Shown here: piece after piece, positions 10,291 through 57,925 of the stretch
Position numbering within the stretch: position 1 is the first letter of the stretch
Layout: the number at the start of each line of letters is the position of its first letter
Source: a virus
Length of the DNA: 64,000 nt
Reading direction: 5' to 3' (one strand)
IMG/VR virus record: IMGVR_UViG_3300033552_000003
Span: 1 to 64,000 of that record
The notes under the pieces: model-generated
The model's database searches: none
The model's input: only the letters and a program-made list of their open reading frames with translations
What the model was told of the DNA's origin: nothing
Translations under genes and position numbers: made by a program

Positions 10291-10295
10291 AACAT

Positions 10296-15347: not shown

Positions 15348-15354
15348 TATACTT

Positions 15355-15388
15355 AACAGGGAGAATCAAACCTTCTCCCTGTTATTTT
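15355..15388 (+). terminator. rho-independent terminator after the capsid gene
   Basis: aacagggagaa (15355-15365) / ttctccctgtt (15373-15383), 7-nt loop, followed by aTTTT. Confidence 0.75.
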
Positions 15389-15422
15389 AAAAACCAAAAC
15401 AACAAACTAAACTAAAATTATT

Positions 15423-16907: not shown

Positions 16908-16933
16908 ATTCTAACTTTTAACAAAAAACAATT

Positions 16934-18202: not shown

Positions 18203-18223
18203 TTTGTTTATTTTGGTTTGAAG

Positions 18224-18252
18224 AAGGGGGTAGGAAACTATCCCCTTTTTTT
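18224..18252 (+). terminator. rho-independent terminator (GAAA tetraloop)
   Basis: gggggtag (18226-18233), loop gaaa, ctatcccc (18238-18245, one G:U pair), then a T7 run. Confidence 0.75.
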
Positions 18253-18266
18253 ATATCTTTACAATA

Positions 18267-28754: not shown

Positions 28755-31700
28755 ATGTCAGAAGTAACACCTGTACCATTACATAAATTAGTAATTAATC
28801 CAGAACCTACAAGAGAACAAGTACTTGATAATATAGGTAAAACTAATTTGTTAAATCCTCTTGTTGCTCCTACAACTACTATTACTCAAAAAGATATAAA
28901 AGATTTAGCCGATCAAAATATCAATTTTGTTACTCCAGATAAAACATGGAATCAACAAAAAGCAGAAAATCAAGGTAATTTAGAACAGCTTTATAATGTT
29001 GCAAAACAAGTTGTAGTAGGTCATGGAATAGGTGGTTTATTTACTGGAGCTGGTTATATAGAATCTTTAGCACAAAGTTCAAACATTGCTAATAATTACG
29101 ATAATGCTTATTCAAATAGCATGACAGAAATAGGTAATGCTATTTTAAAAAGTAGTCAATCTAATAATCCTATTTGGGAAGAAAAGCAAGGAGATTTTAA
29201 TCCTGGTGATTGGGGATATTATATGGGTAGATTAGCAGATGCTGGATCTGTTTTATCAATGGTTATTCCTACAGGATTAATAATTAAAGGATTAGGGTAT
29301 GCGGCTAAAGGACTTACACTTGCTTCTAGGTTTTCTAAAGCTGCCAATAGTGTAGGACTAGGTGCTAAGTATGCAAATTTAGCTGTTAAAGGAATTAGTT
29401 CTGCTATTGTATCAAGGCAAATAGAATCTTCTATGGAAGCAGATGGTATTTATCAAGAACAATATAATAAATATAAAGAGTTAGGCTACACTGAATTAGA
29501 AGCTAAATCTACCGCTTCTAAAGCTGCTGCTTCTACATATAGAGGTAACTGGGCTATGCTTACTCAAGATATATTTCAATATACTTTACTTGGATCTAAA
29601 TGGAGTCCAGCAAGTACTAAAATAGCAGATAAAGGTTTAAAAGGATTTGGTAAAAGTTTAGTTGCTTTAGGTACAGATGCTCTTTCAGAAGGTGCTGAAG
29701 AAGGCTATCAATATATATTAGGTCAAGAATCTAAAGCACAATCTGATATTGATAGTGGTCTAGCTAACGCTGATTTTGGTAGATCTTATAGATTAAAAAA
29801 AGATGTACAAGATGGAGAATTTCTTAATTCTGTAATAAGTGGAATGTTTGGTTCTACTGTTATACAAGGAGGAAATGCAATTGCTGCTAAGTTTTTAAAT
29901 AAAGAAGATTCTGTAAAAGAAGAGGAGTTTAATACTGAAAAAATTATTAATGCTCAGACTTATGCAGATAAGTATAAAGATATAAATCAAAGTATTAAAC
30001 AAGCTGATTTAGCTGAGGATAAAGAATCTGCTAAAGAATTCAGAAGAGAATTATCTACTGAACTTGCTTTACAATCTTCTGATTTAGGTAACATAGATAA
30101 ACATACTGAATTTTTAGAAGGACTTAATGCTATGAGTCCTGAACAAATGGATGCTTTTAATGCTGAAAACAGTACTGAATATAATCAAGAGTTTAAAGAA
30201 TTACTTCCTACTTTAATAGAAGATTCTAAAAAGATAGGAGATTTGTACAATGAAGGTTTTAGAAAGTTTGGTGATAAAGGATTAGCAAATACTTATGCTA
30301 AATCTAAATTTGATTTATCTACTAAAGATTTTTCAAGAAGAACTTTAGATGGAGATATTGCAAGATTATCTATAGACATCCCATTATTATCTGATCTAAG
30401 TCCTGCTGGAGTTATAGAAGCTACTGCTGTAAATACTATCAATAGTAATAAAGCTCTTTTAAAAACACTTAAAAAAGCTAGAGAATCAGGTAATATAACT
30501 GGTAAAAGATTAGAGGCTCTTAACGATAATATTGCTAAATCTGAAGAATCTATTACTAAAGCAAAAAAAGATATTCAAGATTCTAAACTAGTAGAAACTA
30601 CAGAAGAACAAAAAAGATCTGATAGATCTGTTATAGATAGTTTTGATAAAAATAATCAAGAGCTTAATACTAAACTAATTAGAAGAGCGTCCTTAGATAT
30701 GGATTTAAAAGTAGCTATTGATACAATCAATAAGCTAAATAATAATCCTGAAAAAATACAAGAGAATAAGATTAATAATTCTATAGATAAAGCTAACACA
30801 GTATCAGAATTAGAAACTATTGCTAGTACTTTACCTATTGATGCTTATGAATCTACTAAAGAGGCTTACAGAATTAAATTAAAATCTAAATATTCTGAAT
30901 TAAAACAACAAGAAGATAATATTAAAAGAGAAGCTGTAGAAAAAGAAATATCTTTTGTACAACCTACAAGTCCTTCAATAGAAACACCTGATCAAGTTGA
31001 AGCTAATAACTTCAAAAATGATCCTGATTCAGAATTTAATGATCTACTTATTAAACAAGGTAAAGTTATTAATCCACTTGATTTAGTTAATAACGATACA
31101 GTATCTGTAGAAGATCCACATGAACATGGTGCTATTGTATTTGGACAATTTAACAACGGAGTTGTTACTCCTGATTTTATTTTCTGGAAAGCAGATCAAG
31201 TATACTTTAAAAAAATAGATGGTGTATGGACGTTTGAAGGTGATCCTATAGAAGATGCTAATTACATAGAAGCTATAGAATCTTCTCTGTATGACATTCA
31301 AGAAGATTATAATAACAATAACTTTTATAATACACAAGTATTTACAGCTAAACAAAGAGAAGAAATATTACAAGTAGTAAATCCTTCTCAGGCAGTTATT
31401 ACAAAAGAGAATAATGTAAATACAGTTATTATTACTGAAGATACTAAAGAAAGTGAAGATATAGAATCTAAAAAAGCTGATATAGAAAGAAGAAGACAAG
31501 AAGAATTATTATCTTTTTTACCATCAGGATTAAAATCTTTATTTAATAAAACAATAAAAATAATATTTGATAAAACATTACGAAATATTGCTGCTTATAG
31601 AAAGATTACAAAAAATGGGATTTCTTCTGAAGACATAGCTTTATCATCCGATGGAAATTATAGAAATTTATTACACGAATTAATACATAAGTTTATAGAT

Positions 31701-34700
31701 GGCAGATTTGATACTGATACAAGATTAAAATTTAGAAGTAGAGCTATTTCTATTCTTAATAGAATATCTGAACTTTCAGAAGGAGATTCTACTGTAGGTA
31801 GAATGTTAAGAGGATATACTGGAATAGGAAATTCAATAGAAGAAGAAGTTGTTACATGGTATTTAACTGACTCTGATTTTAGAAATGAAATAAACTCTTT
31901 AGATTTAAATGTTAAAAATAAAGTACTTTCTTTAATAAAAGAAATTTCTGGATTTACTGATGATCAACTTCAAGAATTTATTAATTTTGATAGTTCAGAA
32001 AAAGCAAAAGAATTAGCTTTTGAAAATATTGATAATATTAATGCTAAATATGATGCTGAATTAGCTGCTTTAAAATCTAAAAAAGAAAGTACAAATATAA
32101 TTATTGAAATTGAAGAATTTACTATTGAAGAGTCTGAAGAAGCTAATTATTTAAAACCTAACTTACCTGGGAGTAGATTAGCTTATAAATCATATAGAGG
32201 AGATAATCCTACTACTGATTTACGTGAAGGATATAAGAAAGATTTTACAGATCTTATTGAAACTCCTATTCCTTTTTCTGAGAAGTTTGAAAAGAGTATT
32301 AATTTGTCAATTGATTTAGATTACATGAAAAGTAATCCATCTTTAGCTAAACTAATACCTCAATTAGATACTCTTGAAGATATTGGTAATATTCCAATTA
32401 AAGCAGAGTTAACGGGTAAAAATGGTAAGACCTATATATCTTATCTTTATACAAGTAATACTTTAAGAAATCAAACATATAATACTCAAGAACAAATAGA
32501 TAACTTATTATCTTTAAAAAGATCTGTAGTAGAAGCATACAAACAAGGTACATCTGTTATTACAAAAATAGATTATACTACAAGTGTACTTGGTGGAGTA
32601 TTTGCTAAACAACTAGATACGTTTGAAAATGTACCTACTAGTTTTCAATTACCTATTGAAGAATTTGATTTAAGAGTATCTTCTGATAACTATTACATTA
32701 AAGCAGATGGAACTGAAGACTTTGATTTACCAAGTCCTAAAAAGAAAGGTAACATCTATAGCGTACATAAAAATACTAATGGAAAATCTGTACCTGTTAA
32801 ATTATGGAATAGTAAAATAACTCCAGAGATATCTAACTTAATACTTAATATCTATAAAGAGATAAATTCTAAAGGACGTAAAGCTGCTTTATCTTCTGAA
32901 TTTAAAAGTTCTAATTCAGATATACTTAAAAACTTAATAAACATATTAGATAATCCTACATACGGAACTCTATTAGAGAATCTAGTTTATGAAGGTAAAA
33001 ATGAAACAGCTACAGCTAAGTATCCTCTATATTTATCTGAAAGTAAATTAACGTTTGGTAATTTAACTCAAGATATTAATAATATAGATGCAGAAGCATT
33101 CTTAAATTATACAACTACTAACAAGTACTTTCAAGTTAATAGAAAGTTATTAGCTGATAATAAGTATAAGAAATTCTTATTTGATAACATTCTTAAAACC
33201 AATACTGCTGCAGTAGATGGTAATTTATTTATACAACCTACTATAGTACTTTCTACAGATACTACACAAAGAGTATTTATACCTGTTAAAACAGAAGCTA
33301 TATCTGTACCTGATGAAAGTCAACCCACTACTATAGTTAGAGAAGATTTAGAAGCTCCTTCTATATTTGATTCTAAAGATATTGCACCTACTAAAGCTAC
33401 TGTTATTAATGAACAAGAAGCAATTGCTTGGTTAAGATCTAATTTAAGTATGGTTCCTGTAGAACTACAGAATGATGCTATTGAGATATTTAAAGATGGT
33501 ACACAATCTATAGGACGTTTTACTGAAGGTATGATTATACTTTCTAGATTAGCTAGTACTGGAACAGAATATCATGAAGCTTTTCATGCTGTAAGTCAAT
33601 TATATCTTACTGAAAAAGAAAGAACTGGTTTATACAATAAAGTAAAAGTAGCTGAAGGTAAACAATTAACTGATAGACAAGCAGAAGAATTATTAGCAGA
33701 TGAGTTTGCTTATTATGTAAAATCAGATGGAAAAGCTGATTATAAATATGTTGATAAATCCCCGTCTTCTTTTTTTGGAAAGCTACTTCAATGGATTAAA
33801 TCTGTATTTAGTAATACAACAACTGTAGATAAAGTATTTAAAAATATTAACTCTGGATTCTATACTAATAAAGTCTTACCACAAAATTTAAAAGTTACTT
33901 CTTATGATAAGAGAGTAGATAACTTATCTGTAGAACAAGCTAAGAATATAACTGATCATTTACTTTATTTAGCTTTTGTTACACAGAATTTAGGTTCAGA
34001 AGATATAAGTAAATTAGATTTTAATAAAGCTACTTTTGAATTATTTAAAGTATATAATGTAGCTGATTCTTCATTTAAAGAAAGATATGAAAGAGTATTT
34101 GATTCTCTTTGTAGATCTGATTGGAGAACTATATTTAATAATCCTAAAATAGATTTAAAACAAGTTGAATGGATAGATAACTATTCTCCTCTTGCAACTA
34201 ACTTATATGAAGGACTTCAAACACTAGGTATTAAAACTAAAATAAGTAAAAAAACTATTGAAGAGTTAGATACTGAATTAGAAGATCAGCGTTTAGATGA
34301 AACAGATGGTGATAATTATACTCCACTTACTACTAAAGCAAGTTATAATTATTCAAACAAAGAAACATCTAGAAACAATACTAAGTTATTAGTAGCAAGT
34401 TTACCTGCTATTAAAGAAATTAAAGATGGTAAAAATATATATGAAAAAGATGATTACTTTGGTTTAGTTAAAATAGCTGATTACGGTAGTACTTGGTCTT
34501 TCTTAGAAGATTTATTATCTAATATAAACCCAACTAACGAACAAGACGGCCTTGATATTATGATGAATCGTATTAAAGATTCACTTGTATTTAGACCTGA
34601 ATTAAGTAAACTGTATAATAATTTAAGTTCTGCTGATGATACAGTACGTACTCAGTTTTATACTGATATGAATTTAGTTAAGAATAATTTTGCTACAACT

Positions 34701-37700
34701 CTTTTAACTAAAGCATATAATGCAGAAACTAAAAAATATAACTACGAATACAAGTTTCAAAAAGGAAATCAAAAAAACGTAGCTAATAGAATTACTTCTG
34801 AATGGTCTGATTTGTTTAATAACAACTTTTTAACTGACTCTGGTATAGATGTGATTAAAGTAAAATCTATAACTGATAAAATATCTATTATAGAAAACAA
34901 ACTTAAAGAAAGATCTTTATCAGATTCTGAATTAAATGTTATTATAGAAAATATATATAAAACTCTTAATGATTTAGGATTTAGATTTACATCTGTTAAT
35001 TCACTTAGTTATGTTATTAACAGTATTAAATCAGATAATTTACAAGGTAGAGTATCTGCATTTTTATTAAGTAAAAGTGTAGGTATTGATAAAGTTATAG
35101 AAAGAATATCTTTAGGAGAAGATCCTGCAATCGTACTTCCTGATGAAAAAGGTATGACATATGTTGTTAATTTAGAAGCTAAGTTTAGAAAAGATGGTTT
35201 TGAATCATCTATTGTAGGTGCTGGTGGAAATAAACAGTGGTCTTATTCTTATGGAAGTTTTTTTAATAAAGTTATTTCTAGTATGAATAATATTAATGAA
35301 TCTGACTTTATTAAAAATTTATCTAACACACCTTACTTTAAAAATAGTGTTTGGTTTCATCAATTAAAAACTAATCAAGTATCGGCAAGTAGTATAACAT
35401 CTTCTATATTCTCTTCTCTTAAAGAAGAAAATAACGGTGATTCAGGTTCTTCTCTTACAGATCTTGCACCTAATGAAGAGAAATCAGATATTATAAACAG
35501 AATAATTGCTAATATAGATACTCCAGATAGATCAAGTTATTCTACAGGTTTAGCTAAAGCAGATAAATCTACAGATGTTCTTATAGCTGGATTTAAATTA
35601 ATTCCTGCAAAGTATACTAATAATCAGTTAAGTAATGCAGGTATTGATATATTATCTGGTTATTTAATAGATGAATTAAATAGAACAATACAAGCACATA
35701 AAGATGTAGATACATGGAAAGAAAATAATAATACTTCTGATCTTGTAGAATATTATCATTATGATCCAAAAAGTAAAGATAAGTTTGATAAATCTGGTGG
35801 TGCATTTAGAGTATTCTTATTCCCTGAATTAAGTTCTAAGTTATTAAAAGAATCTAATAAAGATCTTTATGATGCTATTTATGATGAATCAGGTGTACCT
35901 TATCCTATATCAGATAACTTTGTTAAAAATACTTTAATAAGAGATTATATAAATACTTCTTTTAGAAAAGTATTAAACTTTGAAATAGCTGAAGCACTTA
36001 AAGTAGGTGTTGTTAAACAAGGCTTAGAATTAGAAAATATATCACTTGATAATAAATTAGTTTCTAAACGTAAAGAAACTATGACTGAGCAGGAAGCTGT
36101 AATAAGTCTATTTGCTGATTATACTTTAAATGGAGTAATAAACAATGTTGAAACTACTAAGTTCTTTCATGGTGATCCTGCATTTTATAAAGGTACAGCT
36201 ATAGATCCATTTGCAGATATTAAGAAAAGAACACCTCTTATACTTGCAACAGGACGTGCTCAAAGAGTTTATAGAGATAAAGAAAACAATTGGGTAGTAC
36301 CACCAACTTATAGATCTGCAGTACTTGAGGATAGTGAAATAGCTTCTTACTATTATACTCCTGAGTATATAGATAACTTAGCAGATATATATTCTGAACT
36401 TAATGGTACGTCTAAAGAATCTGAATTAAGTAAATTAACAGAGCAATTTAGTGCTTACAAAAAAGTAAATGAAACTGATGCTCAAGCATATATAACTCTT
36501 GATAGATATAGAATTACTCAATTAGGTTGGGGTAAGTGGTCAACAGCTAAACAAGAAACTTTTGATGCTATAAAAACTTGGGAAACTAATCCTACAACTG
36601 AGAATTTAAATTTAGCTAGAAAATTATCTAAAGAATCTGATTTAGCTATGCAACCTCTTAAATCTGTACATACAGGTATGGAGTTTCATAGTTCTAATCC
36701 AGGTATAGGTATTGTAGAATATAATAAACAATCTGAAGCAGTACTTAATCCTGTATTTACAGTAGGTACTCCACTTGATAAATTACGTAAGTCTATGGAA
36801 GGTTCTGTAGATCACGTAATATTTAGAAGTGGTAAAAAAGTAGGTACTCAAGGTGCTACATCTATAAGTACGGATGGAGATATAAATAGTAATATTAAAT
36901 TTAATAAGATTAAAAACTTATCAAGTTATAATTATTACTTACAACAAGATCTACCTTATCATGGATTTGATGAATCTCTTGAAGGTTCTCAAATATTTAA
37001 TGTTGTACAATCAGATGTAGACTTTACTCATACTTATTCAAATGGTATGACTGGTAAAGAACTTATAGCTACTTTACAATCCACACAAGCTAAATTACAT
37101 GATATAGGTGGGCAGAAATTAAAGGATAAATACGAATTTACAGATAATTGGACACCAGATAATTATAAAAAGTTACGTAAAGATATTATGGAAGACCTTA
37201 CTAAACGAGGAGCTTCAGATAATATTAGAGAAACTTTACAAGATACATCTTTCCCTTTTTCAGCAATTGCACAAGCAACTAAAAGAGTTACTAATGCTTT
37301 TAACTCTATGGTTAATAGTTCTGGAGTTAAACTTAAAATGCCTGGTGGACCTCTTATTCAAATAAGTGGTTTTGGTATTGCAAGACCTACAGGTTATACA
37401 GAGTTAAATAAAAAAGTTAAGGAGGGTATTTTATGGTTTGGAGAAAAAGAATTATCTCCTCCTAAATTAGTTAAAACAGAAGAAGGAATTACTTCTCTTA
37501 AAGGACAAATACTTGTTCCTCACACAATAGTTGAATCTATTGAAGGATGGGAAACTATGTCTAAGAGTGAGTTACTTTCTAAAATAGATAAAGATACTCT
37601 TTATGCTATTGGATATCGTATTCCAAATCAAGGATTATCTTCAAATGATTCTCTTGAAATTGTAGGTATACTTCCAGTTGAAGCAGGTGATTCAGTAGTT

Positions 37701-40700
37701 CTTTATAATGAAGTAACTACTAAAACAGGAGCAGATTTTGATATAGATAAAATGTATATCATGGTTCCTAATTATAACTATAATAAAGAATCAGGTAGAA
37801 TTGAAAAAGTTAAATATGATTCAACTAACGAAACTGAAGAAGGATTACAGAACTATAAATTAGATCTTTATAATACATTATTATCAGATCCTAAATCTTA
37901 TCTTTCTGTAGTAGCACCTTTAGATTCACCTTTCTTATCAGATACTATTGATCAATTACATGGTGTAGATAAAGTTGAGAATAGAGATTTAATCTTTATG
38001 TCTCCAGGGCAACAGTATAACATTAAAACATCTTTTAGAGGTGGTAAAACAGGTATTGGTATATTAGCTAACAATATTGTTGATCACGTACAAGGACAAA
38101 TATGGGATTTAAAATTAAATGGAGTTGATTTAGGACGTGGTAACAGATCAATTGAAGGTGAAACTGTATTCTCAGGACTTGATTGTGAAGCTACTCAAGA
38201 TGGTACAGTATATAAAATAAGCTCTGTTCTTTCATGGTTTGCAAATGCTTTTGTAGATATAGCTAAAGATCCATATATAACTAAAGGTAATTTTAATGAT
38301 ACTACATTATCTACTACGATGATGTTAGTACGTGCAGGATTTGCTCCTGATTGGATTATTAACTTTATGGGTCAACCTATTCTTAAAGATTATGTTACTT
38401 TAACTAATGCTAATAAAGGAAGAATTAGATCTTATAATGATGTTTTAGCAATTGTAAAAGCAAAATATAAAGGAGAATCTAATAAAGTTAGTGCTAGTAT
38501 TGCTATCAGTAAATTAAAGTCATGTATACAAAATAAAGATTCTGTATCTAACTTTAATGATATACAAACAGGTATATTAGATTTGTTTGTAGAATTTGAT
38601 AGATCTGCTAAAGTTCTTCAAGAACAAATACGTGCATCTAAACAAAATACAAATGGTGCAGGTAAATCTAACGTAGAAGCATTTACTATATCTGAACAAG
38701 TTAATAAAGTAAATTCTGAAAATAAAATAGGTAATTTTAGTAATAAATTTAATGGTGCATTAGGTGCAGCATACGAAAACTCTGTTACTCTTTTACGTAA
38801 TATGTTTGGAGATTTCTTATTCTCAGATAACTCTGTAAACAAACAAGCTATAAGAGAAATATCTTCAGATCAAGGTAAGTTATTTGCAACTGATTTAGAA
38901 CTTAATGAAAAAGTATCTGAATCATTCTATTCTTATGTATCATCTGGATTAGAATTCTTTAAAAATACAGATCTTAAAGAACTACTTTATGGTAAAGAAT
39001 CTATTGCTAATAGAATATATAATTTAAAATATGGTAAAGAATCTACTGTACGTAATAATATTCTTATACAATATTTAGAAATACAGAAACAAAAAGGATC
39101 TATTCCTGGAACAGTAGGTATTAATCAATTTAGAGATAAGTCTATAGCAGTACAGAATCAAATTACTCAAAGTTGGGAAGAACTTCTTTCTTCAGACAAT
39201 CCTAAAACAAAAGCTGTTGCAGAAGATCTTGTAAAATATGCGTTTTATTCATCTGGATTTAACCCTACATCCAAATCCTTTTTTGAATACATTCCTTATA
39301 AGTATTTGAAACAAATAGGATTTGGTGATTATATGGATAACTTTATGAAAAATCCTAATAATCAAATTGTTGATAGTTTTAAAGAACAGTTTTATCAAAA
39401 CAATATTGATTCTGATTATATCAAGGATTTTAATAAAAATGATATTATAAATAAAAATGGTATTGTTACTATTAAAGAAGATTCTTTAAAGAAATTCTTT
39501 ATAGGATATTCTACAGTTAATAATACTACACAAATAGAATACAGTAGATATATTAAATCAGTTGAAATAGTAGAAAACGTTATAACAAAAGGTAATGAAA
39601 AAATTAAAATCTTTAATAAAACAAGTAAATTATATAAACTTCAAGGATATGATATAAGTAATGTACCTATGTATACTCAAATAGGTATTAAAGGATACTC
39701 TGCTAAAGATGGTAATAGAGTTGTAGAATATTCTTATAACGAGAATAAAGAATCTATATTTAATCTTTTAGTTAAAGATATTCAAATAGAAGTTAGTTTA
39801 TATCCTCAAACTCCTAATTCAGAATCGTATAACAATACTTCAGAAAATAAACTTACTAAAGTAAATAATACTAATTTTACATTAGGAAAAGCAATTATTG
39901 ATTATATAAATTCTATATTACCAAATTTTATAAAAAATAAAAATGATGAATTTAATTTTGTATCTGAACTTAAAGCTTTACAATTATTATCTTTTGAAGA
40001 AAATACTAAAGAAGAATTAATTAGCGGTAAAAAGAATGCTGAAAGTGCTTTACAAGAATGGGCAGATGGAAATAAAAATTTAAATAGCCAATTAAATAAT
40101 ATTTTAGCAAATATACTACTTGGTAAACTAGCTGAAGACGGACTTTCTGAATCAGATATATGGCACAATTTATTTAATACGCCATTAAAAAATACTAATG
40201 AAAAAAATGTATCTAAAACTAAAAATTTAGAATTTGTATTTAATGAAAATCCTATATTAAAAGAGGTAGGAACTAAAAAACAGTATTCTAATTATTTAGA
40301 TACTATATTTCCAAATAGTACATTAACAGATATTGTTTATCATGGTACAAATAATAAAAATGAAATATTAAAAGAAGGATTTAAAAACAATAGTGAATTA
40401 TTTAGTGCTGATGACGATAGACATTATGAAATTGGAGAATTAGGGAATGGTTATTATTTTACACCTAGTATAAATTCTGCTAAAAATTATGGAGAAATTG
40501 TTAGTGCTGTAATAAACAATCCTGATGTAGAAAATAAAACTACATTTAACAACATAACTAATGAACAAGAAACACAGTATTTTGTAAAATCAAAAAAACA
40601 AATACATGTATTAGGTACAGAACAAGATATAGAAGGATTTAAAGAATATGTAAAAAAAGATGTATCTTTGAATGAATCAATAGATCTAGAAAACGATTTA

Positions 40701-40709
40701 ATTTGTTAA
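28755..40709 (+). CDS. giant (3,984 aa) virion protein: crAss-type two-barrel RNA polymerase core plus two HExxH modules and a C-terminal ART-like module
   Basis: GYRIPNQGLSS...TGADFDIDKMYIMVP (nt 37617-37760) parallels RNAP beta-prime NRAPTLHRLG...NADFDGDQMAVHVP. HELIH at 31674-31688, HEAFH at 33573-33587. YHGT / GNGYYFT / NEQETQYFV at 40338-40586. Confidence 0.8.
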   Translation: MSEVTPVPLHKLVINPEPTREQVLDNIGKTNLLNPLVAPTTTITQKDIKDLADQNINFVTPDKTWNQQKAENQGNLEQLYNVAKQVVVGHGIGGLFTGAGYIESLAQSSNIANNYDNAYSNSMTEIGNAILKSSQSNNPIWEEKQGDFNPGDWGYYMGRLADAGSVLSMVIPTGLIIKGLGYAAKGLTLASRFSKAANSVGLGAKYANLAVKGISSAIVSRQIESSMEADGIYQEQYNKYKELGYTELEAKSTASKAAASTYRGNWAMLTQDIFQYTLLGSKWSPASTKIADKGLKGFGKSLVALGTDALSEGAEEGYQYILGQESKAQSDIDSGLANADFGRSYRLKKDVQDGEFLNSVISGMFGSTVIQGGNAIAAKFLNKEDSVKEEEFNTEKIINAQTYADKYKDINQSIKQADLAEDKESAKEFRRELSTELALQSSDLGNIDKHTEFLEGLNAMSPEQMDAFNAENSTEYNQEFKELLPTLIEDSKKIGDLYNEGFRKFGDKGLANTYAKSKFDLSTKDFSRRTLDGDIARLSIDIPLLSDLSPAGVIEATAVNTINSNKALLKTLKKARESGNITGKRLEALNDNIAKSEESITKAKKDIQDSKLVETTEEQKRSDRSVIDSFDKNNQELNTKLIRRASLDMDLKVAIDTINKLNNNPEKIQENKINNSIDKANTVSELETIASTLPIDAYESTKEAYRIKLKSKYSELKQQEDNIKREAVEKEISFVQPTSPSIETPDQVEANNFKNDPDSEFNDLLIKQGKVINPLDLVNNDTVSVEDPHEHGAIVFGQFNNGVVTPDFIFWKADQVYFKKIDGVWTFEGDPIEDANYIEAIESSLYDIQEDYNNNNFYNTQVFTAKQREEILQVVNPSQAVITKENNVNTVIITEDTKESEDIESKKADIERRRQEELLSFLPSGLKSLFNKTIKIIFDKTLRNIAAYRKITKNGISSEDIALSSDGNYRNLLHELIHKFIDGRFDTDTRLKFRSRAISILNRISELSEGDSTVGRMLRGYTGIGNSIEEEVVTWYLTDSDFRNEINSLDLNVKNKVLSLIKEISGFTDDQLQEFINFDSSEKAKELAFENIDNINAKYDAELAALKSKKESTNIIIEIEEFTIEESEEANYLKPNLPGSRLAYKSYRGDNPTTDLREGYKKDFTDLIETPIPFSEKFEKSINLSIDLDYMKSNPSLAKLIPQLDTLEDIGNIPIKAELTGKNGKTYISYLYTSNTLRNQTYNTQEQIDNLLSLKRSVVEAYKQGTSVITKIDYTTSVLGGVFAKQLDTFENVPTSFQLPIEEFDLRVSSDNYYIKADGTEDFDLPSPKKKGNIYSVHKNTNGKSVPVKLWNSKITPEISNLILNIYKEINSKGRKAALSSEFKSSNSDILKNLINILDNPTYGTLLENLVYEGKNETATAKYPLYLSESKLTFGNLTQDINNIDAEAFLNYTTTNKYFQVNRKLLADNKYKKFLFDNILKTNTAAVDGNLFIQPTIVLSTDTTQRVFIPVKTEAISVPDESQPTTIVREDLEAPSIFDSKDIAPTKATVINEQEAIAWLRSNLSMVPVELQNDAIEIFKDGTQSIGRFTEGMIILSRLASTGTEYHEAFHAVSQLYLTEKERTGLYNKVKVAEGKQLTDRQAEELLADEFAYYVKSDGKADYKYVDKSPSSFFGKLLQWIKSVFSNTTTVDKVFKNINSGFYTNKVLPQNLKVTSYDKRVDNLSVEQAKNITDHLLYLAFVTQNLGSEDISKLDFNKATFELFKVYNVADSSFKERYERVFDSLCRSDWRTIFNNPKIDLKQVEWIDNYSPLATNLYEGLQTLGIKTKISKKTIEELDTELEDQRLDETDGDNYTPLTTKASYNYSNKETSRNNTKLLVASLPAIKEIKDGKNIYEKDDYFGLVKIADYGSTWSFLEDLLSNINPTNEQDGLDIMMNRIKDSLVFRPELSKLYNNLSSADDTVRTQFYTDMNLVKNNFATTLLTKAYNAETKKYNYEYKFQKGNQKNVANRITSEWSDLFNNNFLTDSGIDVIKVKSITDKISIIENKLKERSLSDSELNVIIENIYKTLNDLGFRFTSVNSLSYVINSIKSDNLQGRVSAFLLSKSVGIDKVIERISLGEDPAIVLPDEKGMTYVVNLEAKFRKDGFESSIVGAGGNKQWSYSYGSFFNKVISSMNNINESDFIKNLSNTPYFKNSVWFHQLKTNQVSASSITSSIFSSLKEENNGDSGSSLTDLAPNEEKSDIINRIIANIDTPDRSSYSTGLAKADKSTDVLIAGFKLIPAKYTNNQLSNAGIDILSGYLIDELNRTIQAHKDVDTWKENNNTSDLVEYYHYDPKSKDKFDKSGGAFRVFLFPELSSKLLKESNKDLYDAIYDESGVPYPISDNFVKNTLIRDYINTSFRKVLNFEIAEALKVGVVKQGLELENISLDNKLVSKRKETMTEQEAVISLFADYTLNGVINNVETTKFFHGDPAFYKGTAIDPFADIKKRTPLILATGRAQRVYRDKENNWVVPPTYRSAVLEDSEIASYYYTPEYIDNLADIYSELNGTSKESELSKLTEQFSAYKKVNETDAQAYITLDRYRITQLGWGKWSTAKQETFDAIKTWETNPTTENLNLARKLSKESDLAMQPLKSVHTGMEFHSSNPGIGIVEYNKQSEAVLNPVFTVGTPLDKLRKSMEGSVDHVIFRSGKKVGTQGATSISTDGDINSNIKFNKIKNLSSYNYYLQQDLPYHGFDESLEGSQIFNVVQSDVDFTHTYSNGMTGKELIATLQSTQAKLHDIGGQKLKDKYEFTDNWTPDNYKKLRKDIMEDLTKRGASDNIRETLQDTSFPFSAIAQATKRVTNAFNSMVNSSGVKLKMPGGPLIQISGFGIARPTGYTELNKKVKEGILWFGEKELSPPKLVKTEEGITSLKGQILVPHTIVESIEGWETMSKSELLSKIDKDTLYAIGYRIPNQGLSSNDSLEIVGILPVEAGDSVVLYNEVTTKTGADFDIDKMYIMVPNYNYNKESGRIEKVKYDSTNETEEGLQNYKLDLYNTLLSDPKSYLSVVAPLDSPFLSDTIDQLHGVDKVENRDLIFMSPGQQYNIKTSFRGGKTGIGILANNIVDHVQGQIWDLKLNGVDLGRGNRSIEGETVFSGLDCEATQDGTVYKISSVLSWFANAFVDIAKDPYITKGNFNDTTLSTTMMLVRAGFAPDWIINFMGQPILKDYVTLTNANKGRIRSYNDVLAIVKAKYKGESNKVSASIAISKLKSCIQNKDSVSNFNDIQTGILDLFVEFDRSAKVLQEQIRASKQNTNGAGKSNVEAFTISEQVNKVNSENKIGNFSNKFNGALGAAYENSVTLLRNMFGDFLFSDNSVNKQAIREISSDQGKLFATDLELNEKVSESFYSYVSSGLEFFKNTDLKELLYGKESIANRIYNLKYGKESTVRNNILIQYLEIQKQKGSIPGTVGINQFRDKSIAVQNQITQSWEELLSSDNPKTKAVAEDLVKYAFYSSGFNPTSKSFFEYIPYKYLKQIGFGDYMDNFMKNPNNQIVDSFKEQFYQNNIDSDYIKDFNKNDIINKNGIVTIKEDSLKKFFIGYSTVNNTTQIEYSRYIKSVEIVENVITKGNEKIKIFNKTSKLYKLQGYDISNVPMYTQIGIKGYSAKDGNRVVEYSYNENKESIFNLLVKDIQIEVSLYPQTPNSESYNNTSENKLTKVNNTNFTLGKAIIDYINSILPNFIKNKNDEFNFVSELKALQLLSFEENTKEELISGKKNAESALQEWADGNKNLNSQLNNILANILLGKLAEDGLSESDIWHNLFNTPLKNTNEKNVSKTKNLEFVFNENPILKEVGTKKQYSNYLDTIFPNSTLTDIVYHGTNNKNEILKEGFKNNSELFSADDDRHYEIGELGNGYYFTPSINSAKNYGEIVSAVINNPDVENKTTFNNITNEQETQYFVKSKKQIHVLGTEQDIEGFKEYVKKDVSLNESIDLENDLIC

Positions 40710-40711: not shown

Positions 40712-43700
40712 ATGGCTTGTAAAATACCAAACTATATTGAAATATCTAACGCTTTAAGTAAAACTAAAGATTACTTAACTTCTGTACATCATGTTGTAGG
40801 AGAAGATATTAAAGCTTCAGGTGTGTTTGAAAAAGGCTTTACGTCTAATAGATATTATACTAGAAGTATTAGAACTGATAGTATAAATAAATCTAGAAAA
40901 TGGGTTGCTGATTACAACAATAAAATTAAAGAAATATTTGGTATAAAAGATAAAATACTAACGCTTAAAAAATCAGAATATAAAGGATCTACACAATACG
41001 AATCTATCAGTATAGATGCTACTGTACTTAAAACTTATCATGAAAAATTAGTTGATTTAAGAGATTCTACAAAATTAATAACTGCAGATGTAGAAAGAGG
41101 TTCTGAACCAGATTTCTATACAGGTAATTATCAAAAAGAATCTAATTATGGTTTTGAAAGTTTACAGGGATTATCTAATAAGATATTACGTCTTAAAAAG
41201 AATTTTAATACAAATGTTGTATTAGATTCTGATATGAAAGAATTAGGTAGAGTAGATCCTTATGAAGCTGGAGAAACTCCTACTGTTAGAATTAATCCTA
41301 TATTAGTTAATAAAGATACAGTGATACATGAATTTGGTCACGTATATATTAACTTGTTAGGTGGTAATTCTGATAGTATGATTGCTGAAGGAATAGCTCA
41401 ACTTAAAGGATCTGAATTATGGAATAAAGTTGCTTTAGCGTATTCTTCACTTACTGAAAAAGAATTAGGTGAGGAAGTATTAGCAACTGCAATAGGATTA
41501 GAGGGTGCAGAGATATTTGATGATTACATTAAAAGATCTAAATTTAGTTTATGGTTAGATAACTTTTTTAATAAATTAAAATCTTTAATAGGTATACCAA
41601 GAAACGTAGCTAAAGAATTAGCTAAAGAGATGTTTGGTAATAAGTTACGTACGGGAACTCCTAAAGGAATTAATTATTATCAGAAACAAAAGCTTGGTAC
41701 ACAAGATGAAGTTTATAATAAATTATTTTCTGCTAATAGTGAATTTACATCTGGAGAAAATAGCGATGTACTTATTAAAGATGGTGTACCATATACCAAC
41801 ATAAGTAAATTAGTATCTACAGATTTTCCTAGAAATACACTACAGAAGAAATCTTATGAAAGATCTGTACTTGAGATATTTAAACTAGTAAATAACAACT
41901 TAGATTTAGGATCAGTAAAAACAGAATTTAAGAAAGAACAAGATAAATCTAAATTTGGCTACCTTACTTTTCTGAATGATACTGATATAGAATCAGTATA
42001 TACTTACTGTAAGAAGTTTAAAGATAAATTTACTGAAGAGGGTAAAAAAGTACTTATTGGAAATACTGTAGTAGATGATAGAGATAACGTTAATATAGCT
42101 GGTAACATACAAATCAGTACTGTATCTCAAAAAGGTAAAGTAGATATATATAATCTGTTTATTACTTTAGGATCTGAACTTACAACTGATAGTATTGTTG
42201 CTGAACAGAGTTTACAAGTTGAAGCTTTAAAGAATATGGGTATTCAAACTAGTTCTATTTATACTTTACCTATTCGTTTAGTAGAGGACAGACTTATACC
42301 TAATCCTTATGTTGAAAATACTGTTAATAAAGAATACATAAAGAAGTATCTTTCTATACAGTTATCTCCTGAAGCAATAACTAAAGTAGCTAATACAGCT
42401 AAAGAACTTGTAGGTGTATTACAGAGAAAAGTAAGTATAATTTCTAGAACTATAGAAAGTAAAACTCCTATTCAAAAAGAACGTTTTGATGAGTTTAAAC
42501 AAACTGTAGCGGATTTAGCAGATGCTGAACAAACTAAAGTTATAACTTCATTTTTAGATACTGCTACTAGAGAAGTACTTGCACTTGAAAAACGTTTACA
42601 AAGTACAATTCAAAAAGATGATTTTACTTTAGAAGATTTACGAACTATATATGAATATAGTCAAGCATATTCTTCTGTTAAAGAAGTATCTGAATTACTT
42701 AGAGATCCTTCTATTGCTGAAGAATTTAAAGATACTAATTATATTAATCAAATAGATATTGTTAAAAGACATATTGATAATATAACAAGTACTTATAAAA
42801 AATATGCTAAAATAGCTTTAGCTAGAAGTAATAAAAAAGAAAGTAAAATATTTACAGCTAGGCGTATTGAACTTGAAAGAGAATTTAATAAAATAGAAAT
42901 TAAAAAATACAGTTCTCTTAAAGGAGATCAATTAAAACAAAAGAAATTAGAGTACATAAACAAACATATAGCTGATGAGTATAATATTTTAATACAAGAA
43001 GAAGAGGATCGTATAGTTAAGTTATTAACGGATACAGATTCTGATATTGGTGCAGTAGATTTATGGGTTACAGATAGCAGAAACTTAAATGATGAATTAT
43101 TACAATTACTTGAAAATAAATTATCAGTTGCTGACTTTACGGTTACTTCTGCTACTCAAGATGTTTATTCAGATGTAGATACAATCTTTAAAGAAGTTAT
43201 TACACTTAAAAGTAATACAACTGATCAGAAAAAGTTATATGAAGAATCTTTAGAAACTTATGAAAGTAAAACTACAGGATATTACGTATCTCAATACTTT
43301 TCTGAATTTGATAAACAGAAAAAGGTAGTATGGGATAAATACTATTCTTTTGAAAATAAAGATTCTTCTGAAGCACTAAAAGCTTATACTGAGGCTGTTG
43401 CTTGGAACAAAGATAATATTCAAAGTAAATACACTGAATCTTTTCAAAATCAAATGGATCAGTTTTTATCTGCAGATGATACTAATTATAAAGTAAATAG
43501 AATATTAGCTAAATATTCTGATAAAAGTAATGTATCAGATAAAGATTTAGCAGAAATAAAAACTTTACTTGAAAACAAGAAATCTACTCCTGATAAATTA
43601 AAGAATAAATTTTATAGCCAAGTTGATTTTGTAGAATCAGAAAGTTTTATAGAAACCAAAAAAAGAAAGAGTAAGCAACTTGGAGACAAATATGACGAAT

Positions 43701-45748
43701 GGTTAAGTAAACAGTATTATACAAAAGCTAATACTAAACGTTTATTACCTATGTGGTCTGAGTTATCTCCTAAAGATAAGTCTGTACTTAATCCTGATAA
43801 AGGTTTACCTAAGAATAAATGGGTAAATCCACAATATAAAAAACTAGAAGAACTTAGAAAACAAGACTCTTCTGTTGCTAAATTATATGATAAACTAATA
43901 AGTTATAACTTAGAAGCTGATAATTTAGTACCTCTTGCTCAAAGATTAGGTTATAAATTACCTTCTATAGAAAAATCAACTATTGAAAGAGTTTCTGATA
44001 AAGGTCCTTGGTTTGCAATAAGAGAAGGTTTTTTAAATTCATTTAGAAAAACAAACTTAGATATTGATTTAGGTGAAGAACAAGGAGTAGATAAAAAACA
44101 AGGTATTAATAGTCTACGTAATGTTGTAGACTCAGTTATTAATGTATTTACTACAGAAGCAGGTAGAGAAAAGAAAGCTATTCCTATTCATTATAGAAAA
44201 GACTTAACAAACTTAGAAGATCAATCTTATGATCTAGCTACTTTATGTTTAGCTAATTATCAAACTTGTAAAAATTACAGTGAAAAAACTAAAGTAGCAC
44301 TTGATTTAGAAGTTGCTAAAGATTTAGTTTATGAAAGACAGGTAAATCAATATACTCCAGATGGTAAATTAAAACTTGATAATTTTACAGGTAAAGCTGT
44401 AAAAAAAGAAGGTACATCTAATACATATAAAGCAATAGAATCTTTACTTGATACTAGACTTTATGGTATTAGAATGTTAGGAGATGCAAGTTTTAATAAG
44501 AAAGTGGGTCAATTAAATAACTGGGCTAGTGGTACAGTTATGATTCTTAATTATTTATCTGCTCCAGCCAATTTACTACATGGTAAAGTAACATCACTCA
44601 TTGAATCTGTAAGTAGTACATATTATAATACTACTAACTTAAAAAATGGAGAAGCTGAATATGCTAAGGATACTAAAAACATATTAGGTGATATAGGAAA
44701 TAGAAGACCTAATTCTAAAACAAATATACTTTTAGAAAGATTTAATGTACTTGATTCTTTTGATGTATTACATAATAGATTTTCTGAGAATAGTAAAGCT
44801 AGTAATTTATTAAAAGTAAATTCTCTTTATAGTTTTCAAACAGGTGGTGAACATATGATCCAAGGATCTGTAATGTATGCATATTTAGATACTATTAAAG
44901 TAACTAACAGTGAAAGTGTTACAGTTAAGTTTACAGATGCTATTGATATAGTAGATGGAAAAATAAAAGCTAAGGAGGGATATGAGGATGCAGTTAAACC
45001 TGAGCAATTATATAATATATCTGCAAGTATTGCTAGGATATTATCACATCAATTTGGTAACTATTCAAGTACTAATATATCTCAGTTACAACGTTTTGCA
45101 GTAGGTAACATGGTTGTGTCTTTAAAGAAGTTTTTTGTAGGTGGTGCTAAAAGAAGATACAGAGGTATATCAAACATTAAGAATAGAATAGGAGAAGATA
45201 ATTATAATACTCAGCATTATGATCCAGTTCTTGGTCACTATGTAGAAGGGGATTATATAACTACAATACGTACTTTACGTACTATGTATCAGGATTTTAA
45301 AACTTTAAAAATGCAAGCTATAGGTCAAACCTGGGAAGGTATGACAGATATTGAAAAAGGAAGATTTAAAAGAACTATGATCGAATTGAATATAGCACTT
45401 CTTGCGTTTACTTTGTCTATGCTTTTAAAAGGAGATAAAGATGATGATGAAGAAGAAACTACTACTCAATTAATGGGAGCATTCTTAACTCGTAGATTAT
45501 ATAGTGAATTATCTTTCTGGGTAAATCCTATAGAAATAGGACGTACTTTAAGATCACCTGCCCAATCCCTATCTTTTTCAGAAAAAATATTTAGACTATT
45601 AGGACAATTAACTAATCCTATGGAAGAATATACAAAAGGTAAAAGAAAAGGAGATAAAAAGATATTTAAAAAAATAGCAGATATTACACCTATATACTCA
45701 CAAATAAATCGTAATTTAGCAGAGTCAGTAGACTTCCTCTACAAATAA
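40712..45748 (+). CDS. large internal/ejected protein (1,678 aa from the ATG) with an N-terminal zincin HExxH module and a C-terminal TM segment
   Basis: The track start is TTG 40703; the ATG at 40712 lies 2 nt after the upstream stop. VIHEFGHVYINLLGG has HEFGH at 41327-41341. Near the C-terminus, IALLAFTLSMLL is followed by DKDDDEEE. Confidence 0.8.
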   Translation: MACKIPNYIEISNALSKTKDYLTSVHHVVGEDIKASGVFEKGFTSNRYYTRSIRTDSINKSRKWVADYNNKIKEIFGIKDKILTLKKSEYKGSTQYESISIDATVLKTYHEKLVDLRDSTKLITADVERGSEPDFYTGNYQKESNYGFESLQGLSNKILRLKKNFNTNVVLDSDMKELGRVDPYEAGETPTVRINPILVNKDTVIHEFGHVYINLLGGNSDSMIAEGIAQLKGSELWNKVALAYSSLTEKELGEEVLATAIGLEGAEIFDDYIKRSKFSLWLDNFFNKLKSLIGIPRNVAKELAKEMFGNKLRTGTPKGINYYQKQKLGTQDEVYNKLFSANSEFTSGENSDVLIKDGVPYTNISKLVSTDFPRNTLQKKSYERSVLEIFKLVNNNLDLGSVKTEFKKEQDKSKFGYLTFLNDTDIESVYTYCKKFKDKFTEEGKKVLIGNTVVDDRDNVNIAGNIQISTVSQKGKVDIYNLFITLGSELTTDSIVAEQSLQVEALKNMGIQTSSIYTLPIRLVEDRLIPNPYVENTVNKEYIKKYLSIQLSPEAITKVANTAKELVGVLQRKVSIISRTIESKTPIQKERFDEFKQTVADLADAEQTKVITSFLDTATREVLALEKRLQSTIQKDDFTLEDLRTIYEYSQAYSSVKEVSELLRDPSIAEEFKDTNYINQIDIVKRHIDNITSTYKKYAKIALARSNKKESKIFTARRIELEREFNKIEIKKYSSLKGDQLKQKKLEYINKHIADEYNILIQEEEDRIVKLLTDTDSDIGAVDLWVTDSRNLNDELLQLLENKLSVADFTVTSATQDVYSDVDTIFKEVITLKSNTTDQKKLYEESLETYESKTTGYYVSQYFSEFDKQKKVVWDKYYSFENKDSSEALKAYTEAVAWNKDNIQSKYTESFQNQMDQFLSADDTNYKVNRILAKYSDKSNVSDKDLAEIKTLLENKKSTPDKLKNKFYSQVDFVESESFIETKKRKSKQLGDKYDEWLSKQYYTKANTKRLLPMWSELSPKDKSVLNPDKGLPKNKWVNPQYKKLEELRKQDSSVAKLYDKLISYNLEADNLVPLAQRLGYKLPSIEKSTIERVSDKGPWFAIREGFLNSFRKTNLDIDLGEEQGVDKKQGINSLRNVVDSVINVFTTEAGREKKAIPIHYRKDLTNLEDQSYDLATLCLANYQTCKNYSEKTKVALDLEVAKDLVYERQVNQYTPDGKLKLDNFTGKAVKKEGTSNTYKAIESLLDTRLYGIRMLGDASFNKKVGQLNNWASGTVMILNYLSAPANLLHGKVTSLIESVSSTYYNTTNLKNGEAEYAKDTKNILGDIGNRRPNSKTNILLERFNVLDSFDVLHNRFSENSKASNLLKVNSLYSFQTGGEHMIQGSVMYAYLDTIKVTNSESVTVKFTDAIDIVDGKIKAKEGYEDAVKPEQLYNISASIARILSHQFGNYSSTNISQLQRFAVGNMVVSLKKFFVGGAKRRYRGISNIKNRIGEDNYNTQHYDPVLGHYVEGDYITTIRTLRTMYQDFKTLKMQAIGQTWEGMTDIEKGRFKRTMIELNIALLAFTLSMLLKGDKDDDEEETTTQLMGAFLTRRLYSELSFWVNPIEIGRTLRSPAQSLSFSEKIFRLLGQLTNPMEEYTKGKRKGDKKIFKKIADITPIYSQINRNLAESVDFLYK

Positions 45749-52520: not shown

Positions 52521-52704
52521 GGAAAGCCCTAATTCAAGTACGTCTATTTACATAATGCTGTTTATTTTAGTCATAATTACGGCTATGGCTTTGTATGATG
52601 AAGGGCAAAAGATAAACAGATTAAAGAGTGCAATTTATATTATTTCAAATCGGCTGGATAGCTTAATAACTGAGGAACATGAAAAAAAATGGAAGATAAA
52701 CTAA
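52513..52704 (+). CDS. small single-TM protein, 63 aa (holin/antiholin-like)
   Basis: IYIMLFILVIITAMAL segment; overlaps both neighbours. Confidence 0.5.
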   Translation: MSEESPNSSTSIYIMLFILVIITAMALYDEGQKINRLKSAIYIISNRLDSLITEEHEKKWKIN

Positions 52705-53174
52705 CATTAGAAAGAGCAAAAGAAATAAGTCCTGAATTATATTCAGAGCTTAGTCTAATTATAAAAGAATCTAACAAAGCTTTAACAGGTAGAGCTATTC
52801 TTAGATTAGCTTATGTATTTAGATCTTTTATAGAACAAACATTTATATATGCTCAAGGGCGTACAAGACCAGGTTTAATAGTAACTAATGCTAAAGCAGG
52901 ACAATCTATACATAACTATAGATACGCTGTTGATATAGTATTACTTAAAGATACTAATGGTGATGGTACATTTGAAACTGCATCATGGGAAACTAACGTA
53001 GATTTTGATGGAGATGGTAAAGCTGATTGGATGGAAATTGTAGCTATATTTCAAAAATATGGATGGCAGTGGGGTTTAATTAACAAAAAAGGTCAGCGAT
53101 ATGATTTACCTCATTTTCAAAAATCTCCTATGTCTTTAAAAGAATTACAATTTAAATATCCTAAAGGACGTTAA
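52689..53174 (+). CDS. endolysin, peptidase M15 (VanY / L-alanyl-D-glutamate peptidase type)
   Basis: IYAQGRTRPGLIVTNAKAGQSIHNYRYAVD ... GWQWG ... YDLPHFQ reproduces the M15 S-x-H-x(5,6)-D and D-x-x-H zinc-ligand pattern. Confidence 0.85.
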   Translation: MEDKLTLERAKEISPELYSELSLIIKESNKALTGRAILRLAYVFRSFIEQTFIYAQGRTRPGLIVTNAKAGQSIHNYRYAVDIVLLKDTNGDGTFETASWETNVDFDGDGKADWMEIVAIFQKYGWQWGLINKKGQRYDLPHFQKSPMSLKELQFKYPKGR

Positions 53175-57230: not shown

Positions 57231-57914
57231 ATGGCTACAGGTACAAAATATAGCACTAAACTGGAATTATTAAATTCTATACAAGCTTTAGTTTATGAAA
57301 ATGATGGTAATGAAACAGATTCTGAAGATATTCAGAAAGCCTCTAAAAATATTATAGAGTCTTTATGGGATAAAACAGTACCTGCAGGTACAGCAAAACA
57401 AACTTTATATTTTGATGAAGCAGGTGTTCTAACAGCTTCTAGTATGTTAAATCAAGATAACAGTGGTGTGTTAACACATACAAACAATAAAGCAGATAGT
57501 GTTTTTAGAACTATATCAGGAAACCAAAAATTATCATTAAAAGCTACTACTCAAAATACAGCAAATATTCCTTTTAGAATAGATGCTTTTACTCCTTCAG
57601 GAATACCTATTTTAGTAAATAGTATTGCTAAATTAAGAATAGAAATTGTAGGTATACAAACAGCAGGAAGTGCGGGTACAATTGGTGATTGTTGTACAAG
57701 AGTAATTACAGGAGTTGTTAAAAATATATCTGGAACACCTGTAAACATGGGTTCTGGATTAACTGTTTCAGATGTTATAGAAGATGTAGCTTTAAGTGGA
57801 TGTAATTTACTAATTAGTAATGCTGCAGGAAAAATAGATATTGCAATACAAGGACAATTAAATAAATCAATAGCTTGGACAGCATATGTTAATATGACCA
57901 TTTGTACGATATAA
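57231..57914 (+). CDS. hypothetical virion/fibre-module protein, 227 aa
   Basis: ORF in the track. The antisense ORF 57551-57901 is judged spurious. Confidence 0.7.
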   Translation: MATGTKYSTKLELLNSIQALVYENDGNETDSEDIQKASKNIIESLWDKTVPAGTAKQTLYFDEAGVLTASSMLNQDNSGVLTHTNNKADSVFRTISGNQKLSLKATTQNTANIPFRIDAFTPSGIPILVNSIAKLRIEIVGIQTAGSAGTIGDCCTRVITGVVKNISGTPVNMGSGLTVSDVIEDVALSGCNLLISNAAGKIDIAIQGQLNKSIAWTAYVNMTICTI

Positions 57915-57925
57915 AAATTATAAAT

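Follow-up and report, generated by a model that had tools for sequence, protein, structure and literature searches.

The C-terminal ~147 amino acids (aa) of a giant crAss-type virion RNA polymerase (RNAP) protein are predicted to form an ADP-ribosyltransferase (ART) related to the PARP enzymes. The protein, 3984 aa long, is encoded on a stretch of 64,000 nucleotides of viral DNA (positions 1 to 64,000 of IMG/VR record IMGVR_UViG_3300033552_000003), called the window below. Taken as a whole, the reading that this domain is a mobile cassette, that it is delivered together with the virion RNAP and that it mono-ADP-ribosylates a macromolecule early in infection is the one we favour, with moderate confidence.

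An ART-like domain at the end of a giant protein

The tail of the giant open reading frame (ORF) ends ...LTDIVYHGTNNKNEILKEGF...GELGNGYYFTPSINSAKNYG...NEQETQYFVKSKKQIHVLG..., and this peptide, its reading frame, the His codon at 40341-40343 and the Glu codons at 40563 and 40569 are all as given in a preliminary description of the window. When the last 169 aa were compared to Pfam, ART-PolyVal (PF18760) was the best match, with an E-value of 4e-4, and the only other match was the far weaker DUF4806 (E 0.039). A first homology search returned six proteins, two of which already carried PF18760. Among the seven aligned sequences (the window domain and these six), four matched ART-PolyVal, two relatives gave weak matches to PARP (E 0.0015-0.004) and two to Tpt1 (E 0.006-0.01, sub-cut-off). 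A profile search of 1.84 billion representatives identified 1739 relatives at E<=1e-3, including 208 at E<=1e-30; many lie within proteins of 2-7 thousand residues. Six out of ten small family members (P0004, P0006, P0029, P0036, P0038 and P0054) score 33-45 bits against PF18760 and so exceed its cut-off, with a profile coverage of 8-131/140. The window copy is assigned to ART-PolyVal because of this transitive homology, its own score being sub-cut-off. In PHROGs and NCBIfam, the window ART found nothing informative, and its relatives match phrog_21376 (unknown function) with E-values down to 7e-6.

According to Iyer et al. (2017, PMC5512222; 2022, PMC9503650), among the modifying domains of polyvalent virion proteins, ARTs occur most often, and the prototype of ART-PolyVal, also named 'N4-ART', comes from Roseovarius Plymouth podovirus 1 (RPP1), as part of its N4-like virion RNAP (CBX87992.1). 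A hidden Markov model (HMM) made from 146 sequences of the present family finds this prototype at aa 1027-1124, where Pfam also matches (36.5 bits).

The AlphaFold2 (AF2) model of the domain, built on 74 homologues, is a confident one, with a predicted local distance difference test (pLDDT) score of 89.5 and a predicted template modelling (pTM) score of 0.83. Three N-terminal helices are followed by strand 1, helices, strand 2, a helix, strands 3-6 and a long C-terminal helix, the six strands being ordered as in an ART and giving the split beta-sheet of a PARP-like fold. In a Foldseek search against the PDB, the top 50 matches are all catalytic domains of PARP1/2/4 or tankyrase, with probabilities up to 1.0. 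TNKS2 is the best match (5fpg, E 6e-3, probability 1.0, TMq 0.41), followed by PARP1, PARP4 and PARP2. Against BFVD, giant-virus PARPs, a MuF fusion and phage proteins named 'PolyVal ADP-ribosyltransferase' were retrieved. The likeness to PARP and tankyrase extends to a shared signature, hYHG[ST]...GxGhYF[AT]x4SAxY, with identical Y-to-Y spacing, and to strands 5 and 6 (E/Q-Y-h-V-h...Q-h-x-h), again with identical spacing.

From sequence and model, the tail is predicted to be a true ART-fold domain, which belongs to a divergent ART-PolyVal subfamily within the PARP-like H-Y-x clade. This agrees with the preliminary description, which had recognized a module of the PARP/diphtheria-toxin clade and of the polyvalent-protein lineage of Iyer et al. 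(2017) in the C-terminal end of a giant RNAP protein, and which had proposed the profile search and the structure prediction that now both point to an ART. The module had been placed at 40320-40640; the ART is indeed located there, but the conserved domain is larger (Table 1). A three-helix extension, with Y3844, Y3847 and F3852 invariant or nearly so among the 146 domains, precedes the part covered by Pfam, which begins at I3860. At the other end, the Q, I, H, L, G, D3958 and F3962 of strand 6 and the C-terminal helix are conserved to the same degree.

Other assignments were considered and rejected. An Alt-like R-S-E ART (R...S-T-S...E-x-E) disagrees with the H and Y at strands 1 and 2 and with the top 50 PDB folds, all of the PARP family. 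Membership of Tpt1/KptA (PF01885) was dismissed as the window copy has no Pfam match to it. PARP itself (PF00644) gave no Pfam match for the window copy at E<=10, and the third triad residue is a Q. Finally, an AT-rich, low-complexity C-terminal tail might happen to hold YHGT and GxGYYF. The AT-richness of the region (GC 22.8%) and the sub-threshold Pfam score of the window copy taken alone would suit such a chance resemblance, but the large number of profile relatives (more than two hundred at the strictest threshold), the homologues above the Pfam cut-off, the confident AF2 model and the exclusively PARP-type top folds make it highly improbable, and it was therefore rejected.

Nicotinamide pocket and catalytic triad

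Across the 146 aligned domains, H3863 corresponds to H in 140 and R in 5, and Y3901 to Y in 90, F in 26 and H in 9 (125 with Y, F or H). The position of F3902 is F in 136 domains and that of Y3912 is Y or F in 117. The domain has the His in strand 1 and the aromatic Tyr in strand 2 of an ART-PolyVal member. An hhalign comparison of the family with the PARP1 catalytic domain (the sequence used was confirmed to be identical to 6m3i_B) places VYHGT...GxGxYF...AxxY on H862, Y896 and Y907, with 11 residues between the two Tyr in both. Judged from these residues, the nicotinamide pocket (H3863, G3864, Y3901 and Y3912) is predicted to be intact.

The third triad residue is a different matter. An H-Y-E triad had been proposed for the window copy, with one of the two Glu just before a hydrophobic strand as its acidic member; the His and the Tyr are borne out, the Glu is not. 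The residue directly before YFV is Q3941 (CAG, 40575-40577), and the GAA codons at 40563 and 40569 encode E3937 and E3939, respectively 4 and 2 residues upstream. Its place was determined from the invariant QIH of strand 6, which it precedes by 8 residues. The family consensus E-Y-V-V-F-E-P-E-Q-I-H parallels E988-Y-I-V-Y-D-I-A-Q-V-N of PARP1, and the spacing from Q3941 to I3950 is 9, equal to that from E988 to V997. Because of this strand spacing and the family consensus, the best reading is that Q3941 is the equivalent of E988 and the window copy is H-Y-Q. At the head of strand 5, the domain thus has Q3941 instead of an acidic residue (D in Iyer et al. 2017, E in the PARP clade).

Conservation in homologues, which had been named as a check on the whole triad, holds for the H and the Y and fails for the Glu. 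The catalytic-Glu position is E in 51, Q in 19, T in 16 and D in 10 of 137 family members, and E in 26 and Q in 9 of 62 members of the IMG/VR set. All six distinct short-form copies (window, P0001/L009, P0011, P0020/L011, P0120 and L010) have Q here, and the position of E3939 is G or D in short-form relatives. Since E3937 to V3944 form one strand in the AF2 model, the side chains of E3937, E3939 and Q3941 are expected on the same face, and E3939 may substitute for Q3941.

Both PARP1 E988Q and the PARPs that lack the Glu (H-Y-I/L) still mono-ADP-ribosylate, without chain elongation. For that reason, mono-transfer by the H-Y-Q copy is plausible; its activity may be reduced, and poly-ADP-ribose synthesis would not be expected. 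Alternatively, the domain might be a degenerate pseudo-enzyme, i.e. an ART fold with or without NAD+ binding that performs no transfer and instead senses NAD+/nucleotides, provides a docking module or contributes structurally to the RNAP complex that is ejected. A Gln fixed in the subclade in place of the catalytic Glu would then be explained, as would the poor conservation of the third position across the family and the location of the best-conserved residues (Y3844, Y3847, F3852, D3958, F3962 and QIH) outside the classical triad; the insertion of ARTs into the RNAP core of loci L010 and L034, described below, also suits a structural or regulatory domain. We nevertheless regard a pseudo-enzyme as unlikely, given the strongly conserved H, G, Y and Y of the nicotinamide pocket, the full H-Y-E in ~40% of the family, RNAP-linked members included, and the activity of the Glu-less PARPs and PARP1 E988Q as mono-ARTs. 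The protein identity of 60-65% between the ARTs of distant phages (see below) likewise argues for a selected activity.

Carrier gene, association with RNAP and proposed cassette exchange

A phmmer search of the 3984-aa protein against all PDB sequences gave a sole match, 6VR4, the gp66 virion RNAP of the Cellulophaga crAss-like phage phi14:2 (E 3.7e-124). Both hallmarks of crAss-like virion RNAPs, homology to gp66 and a DFDxD motif, are present. The closest GenBank RNAPs are those of phi14:2 (31% identity), then gut, Flavobacterium and Bacteroides crAss-like phages, and the genes 5' of the giant ORF match PHROGs for crAss-type terminase, portal, major head protein (MCP) and a virion protein. 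At the DNA level, a megablast search found no GenBank phage with a close match to the window region.

As described by Drobysheva et al. (bioRxiv 10.1101/2020.03.07.982082), gp65 (a zincin-like protease), gp66 and gp67 of phi14:2 are virion proteins, and in some phages the three form one giant fused polyprotein. By its sequence, the window gene is predicted to be such a fusion of gp65/gp66 type. Its HEAFH motif probably marks a gp65-type zincin protease, and such a protease may process the polyprotein; the region of the motif has no Pfam model match. With HEAFH, HELIH and a virion-type RNAP, the carrier is a large multidomain protein of the polyvalent type expected for ART-PolyVal, and its delivery would follow from comparison with phi14:2.

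Some further features of the giant proteins were observed. HEA[FW]H recurs in the related proteins P0009, P0120, P0142, P0048, P0072 and that of phage cr130_1. The N-terminal ~350 aa (aa ~52-403, window 28900-29960) are conserved with P0009 (E 3e-21) and P0120 (E 3e-25) and contain hydrophobic Gly/Ala-rich stretches; this N-terminal region may belong to the ejection machinery as a component that acts on membranes.

Table 1. Location of the predicted ART, its parts, its carrier gene and other annotated features in the window
Feature	Position	Strand	Basis or remark
Giant gene, 3984 aa, predicted virion polyprotein (gp65-like zincin region, gp66-like RNAP and C-terminal ART)	28755..40709	+	Uninterrupted single ORF
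HELIH, second HExxH motif, aa 974	31674-31688	+	Motif scan
HEAFH, zincin-type metallopeptidase motif, aa 1607-1611	33573..33587	+	Motif scan
Two-barrel crAss-like RNAP module, aa 1831-3565	34245..39449	+	Aligned with phi14:2 gp66 residues 207-2035
Catalytic DFDID, aa 2994-2998	37734-37748	+	Motif scan
Predicted ART domain, ART-PolyVal-related subfamily, aa ~3822-3968	40218..40658	+	Pfam PF18760, profile family, AF2, Foldseek
N-terminal three-helix extension, F-x3-P-x-L-x3-G-T-x2-Q-Y-x2-Y-L-x2-I-F-P	40218..40328	+	Conservation in 146 domains; model helices 4-16, 19-23, 26-36
Strand 1, IVYHGT, with H3863 (CAT, 40341-40343)	40332..40349	+	NAD-binding His, cf. PARP1 H862; model strand 46-50
Strand 2 and helix, G-N-G-Y-Y-F-T-x4-S-A-x-N-Y	40443..40490	+	Y3901 and Y3912, cf. 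PARP1 Y896 and Y907; model strand 85-88
Strand 5, E3937-Q-E3939-T-Q3941-Y-F-V	40563..40586	+	Model strand 122-129
Strand 6 and C-terminal helix, QIHVLGTEQDIEGFKEY	40599..40649	+	Most conserved motif of the subfamily
Downstream giant gene, gp67-position protein, ~1678 aa from ATG at 40712	40712..45748	+	ORF; ART at its N-terminus in many relatives
SGNH/lysophospholipase-like esterase domain in 763-aa protein	46784-49075		phrog_8480
Peptidase_M15_4, likely endolysin	52689-53174		
Tail Collar-domain protein	57902-59122		
PD-(D/E)XK nuclease	62674-63690	-	

Scanning IMG/VR with the ART alignment gave 182 relatives, unlike a scan with the single ART sequence, which gave none. In the best 80 of these loci, a crAss RNAP core is found within 8 kb of the ART in 57, either in the same ORF (25) or in an adjacent one (32). 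When both share an ORF, the ART follows the RNAP in 17 cases, precedes it in 6 and lies inside it in 2. It stands at the start of the ORF just 3' of the RNAP ORF in 28 loci and in the upstream ORF in 4. Conversely, only 8 out of 80 RNAP-anchored loci have an ART within 10 kb, and a tblastn search with the window ART and a typical family member found no match in 50,697 GenBank phage records, crAss-like phages included. The ART is therefore an accessory, lineage-restricted trait.

Ten representative proteins hold both the ART and the crAss RNAP core in local profile searches. The ART comes before the RNAP in P0072 and, in two copies, in P0009, after it in P0120, P0142, P0127, P0081 and P0048, and inside it in P0082 and P0110. 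P0120 has the same layout as the window protein and is encoded on a 113-kb contig with CrAss_Ring_1/2 and crAss_MUZ genes. P0072 and P0048 found no match in the PDB with phmmer, and their RNAP assignment is based on the local profile and the DFDxD motif. The two insertions into the RNAP core differ in site: in L010 (IMGVR_UViG_3300038701_000689; ORF 3792-11132, ART at aa 1336-1564) the ART lies ~60 aa past DFDID, and in L034 (ORF 7545-8756) ~85 aa ahead of it. In L001-L004, the ART is a separate 290-aa gene directly after the RNAP gene, overlapping its stop codon (TAATG). Polyvalent proteins without RNAP also carry the ART, as in P0011, which has a PD-(D/E)XK nuclease, and L011.

With the ARTs of L001/L009, L010 and L011, the window ART (40267-40645) shares 60-65% identity at the protein level and 76-78% at the DNA level, the latter over ~360-380 nt, whereas the RNAPs of these phages are only 21-25% identical in protein to the window RNAP. 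The cassette is found as a separate gene, within an RNAP core, within a non-RNAP giant ORF and, in the window, at the C-terminus. Because the ARTs are so similar in DNA while the RNAPs are not, and because their positions differ, the sequences fit a domain cassette that passes from one distant phage to another. Strong purifying selection may play a part as well, but would leave the changing positions unexplained. The GC content of the ART region is lower than that of the window as a whole (29.4%).

The frequent linkage of ART and RNAP raises the possibility that the ART is active not on a host protein but on the polymerase itself or its nucleic acids: it might modify the virion RNAP, as a switch that signals arrival or activates it, or else the DNA template or the ends of RNA, the latter in a Tpt1/DarT-like manner or by ModB-like attachment of NAD-capped transcripts. 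The PARP-like clade does include ARTs that act on nucleic acids. Such a substrate would be in line with the repeated occurrence of the ART in cis with the RNAP, even at two sites of the catalytic core, and with the weak Tpt1 matches of two family members. The ART is also encoded by a gene of its own (L001), on the giant neighbour protein that has no RNAP and in P0011 and L011, so covalent linkage to the RNAP is not required, which argues against this explanation. As the window copy has no Tpt1/KptA match either, we consider it rather improbable, slightly more so than a pseudo-enzyme.

Several side observations were made on the relatives. At the 3' junction of the RNAP, the genes of the window and L001 have similar N-termini: the window gene at 40712 begins MACKIPNYIEI, the ART gene of L001 (10001) begins MACSIEIEKTI and the next L001 gene (10873) begins MASCININSQEF. 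In L137 (13414-14493), as in L133, L134 and L170, a match to the ART subfamily 3-4 kb 3' of DFDID is split across adjacent ORFs by one in-frame stop, which suggests recoded genes missed by standard translation; these contigs share IMG sample prefixes such as 3300045988 and 3300029873. Uncultured phage cr130_1 (L008, NC_055901.1) has a 5801-aa RNAP gene (2007-19412) with 74 in-frame TAG codons (TAG reassigned), in which no domain of the window ART subfamily was found. An 'ART-PolyVal-like domain-containing protein' of this crAss-like phage in BFVD/UniProt bears an automatic name and could not be matched to a gene. RefSeq calls its RNAP gene 'DprA-like DNA recombination-mediator protein', and other crAss virion RNAP genes carry the names DNA helicase, exonuclease V or nuclear pore complex protein-like; these names look like annotation errors.

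Possible role at the onset of infection

In the favoured reading, the ART would be translated within the giant gp65/gp66-type polyprotein, and, by analogy with phi14:2 gp65-67, is probably carried in the capsid and ejected, along with the RNAP, into the host. It would meet NAD+ only on arrival in the cytoplasm, where it would most likely mono-ADP-ribosylate a macromolecule at the onset of infection; the classical model target is a host protein such as RNAP. That it might switch off host transcription or a defence factor had been put forward in the preliminary description. As separate-gene and neighbour-gene versions of the ART exist, a covalent tether to the RNAP would not be obligatory, and the insertions within the RNAP core suggest that proximity to the RNAP matters. 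Selection would repeatedly put the mobile module next to, onto or inside crAss-type virion RNAPs.

A number of points weigh against this reading. Regarding the fold, the window copy stays below the PF18760 gathering cut-off (21.6 versus 31.2 bits), the Foldseek E-values and TM-scores are modest, the hhalign alignment to PARP1 is statistically weak (probability 7.7%, E 0.0045), and the family profiles A2 and A3 retrieved no ART from the PDB sequences, just spurious matches such as amylase and nucleoporin. Regarding catalysis, a Gln occupies the position of the canonical acid, which varies family-wide, and the flanking helices and QIHxLG..D..F are more conserved than the 'catalytic' site, so that binding instead of catalysis is possible. 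Packaging, ejection, processing, activity and target are all what we infer; the ART-PolyVal literature found is bioinformatic only; and no macrodomain or ARH partner or antidote was found in the 10 non-structural ORFs scanned.

RPP1 offers the nearest known system. Its ART is of the same lineage and also sits on a giant virion-delivered protein that bears a zincin-type peptidase and a virion RNAP (ART 1023-1096, peptidase 1252-1387, vRNAP_dom 2259-2395). The N4 RNAP is a T7-like single-subunit enzyme, however, and the window RNAP is of the unrelated two-barrel DFDID gp66/QDE-1 type. The active sites differ too, being H-Y-D in RPP1 according to PMC5512222, H-Y-Q in the window and H-Y-E in about two fifths of the window subfamily. 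This subfamily is further set apart from ART-PolyVal by its conserved three-helix N-terminal extension and its C-terminal motif QIHILGSKQDIEGFKKF. Compared to PARP and tankyrase, the window ART is much smaller, lacks the PARP regulatory helical domain and has Gln for E988. RPP1 is thus the precedent for the architecture, and T4 Alt is only a functional model, as a capsid-packaged ART that is delivered at infection and modifies host RNAP (PMC5512222); it belongs to the R-S-E (Alt/VIP2) clade and carries no polymerase fusion, and T4 lacks a virion RNAP. The gp65-gp66-gp67 block of phi14:2 resembles the window carrier as the same type of polyprotein, with zincin motif and gp66 RNAP, but gp66 has no ART and none is mentioned in bioRxiv 10.1101/2020.03.07.982082.

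The novelty claimed in the preliminary description was overstated, since the family prototype, in RPP1, is itself an ART fused to a virion RNAP (PMC5512222). Its narrower statement stands, as no paper was found that connects an ART with crAss-type RNAPs. The fusion is thus known in kind, and the partnership with an unrelated two-barrel crAss-type RNAP appears to be undescribed. The conserved flanks of the subfamily, its E/Q variation, the evidence for cassette mobility and the insertion into the RNAP likewise appear to be new.

A bolder and rather doubtful proposal, about as improbable as the pseudo-enzyme, is that the subfamily is more than another component of polyvalent proteins: it would be specialized as a horizontally mobile partner to the two-barrel virion RNAPs of uncultured Crassvirales-like phages, selected to act in cis with the ejected polymerase and convergent with the N4-like ART-virion RNAP fusions. 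It might then ADP-ribosylate host RNAP or a defence factor at the site of DNA entry, let cytoplasmic NAD+ switch on the virion RNAP, or couple NAD-capped nascent RNA to targets.

The favoured reading, a PARP-like ART delivered with the virion RNAP, matters because virion RNAPs act before phage gene expression, so domains travelling with them act first. The same ART family has been acquired by both N4-type and crAss-type virion RNAPs, which are unrelated to each other. The H-Y-Q and H-Y-E variants are a natural pair for the study of ART catalysis. As the ART recurs beside, on and even inside the RNAP in the crAss lineage, ADP-ribosylation may be a general first-minute step of takeover or anti-defence, and the domain would be a concrete candidate effector for a very abundant and poorly understood group of phages.

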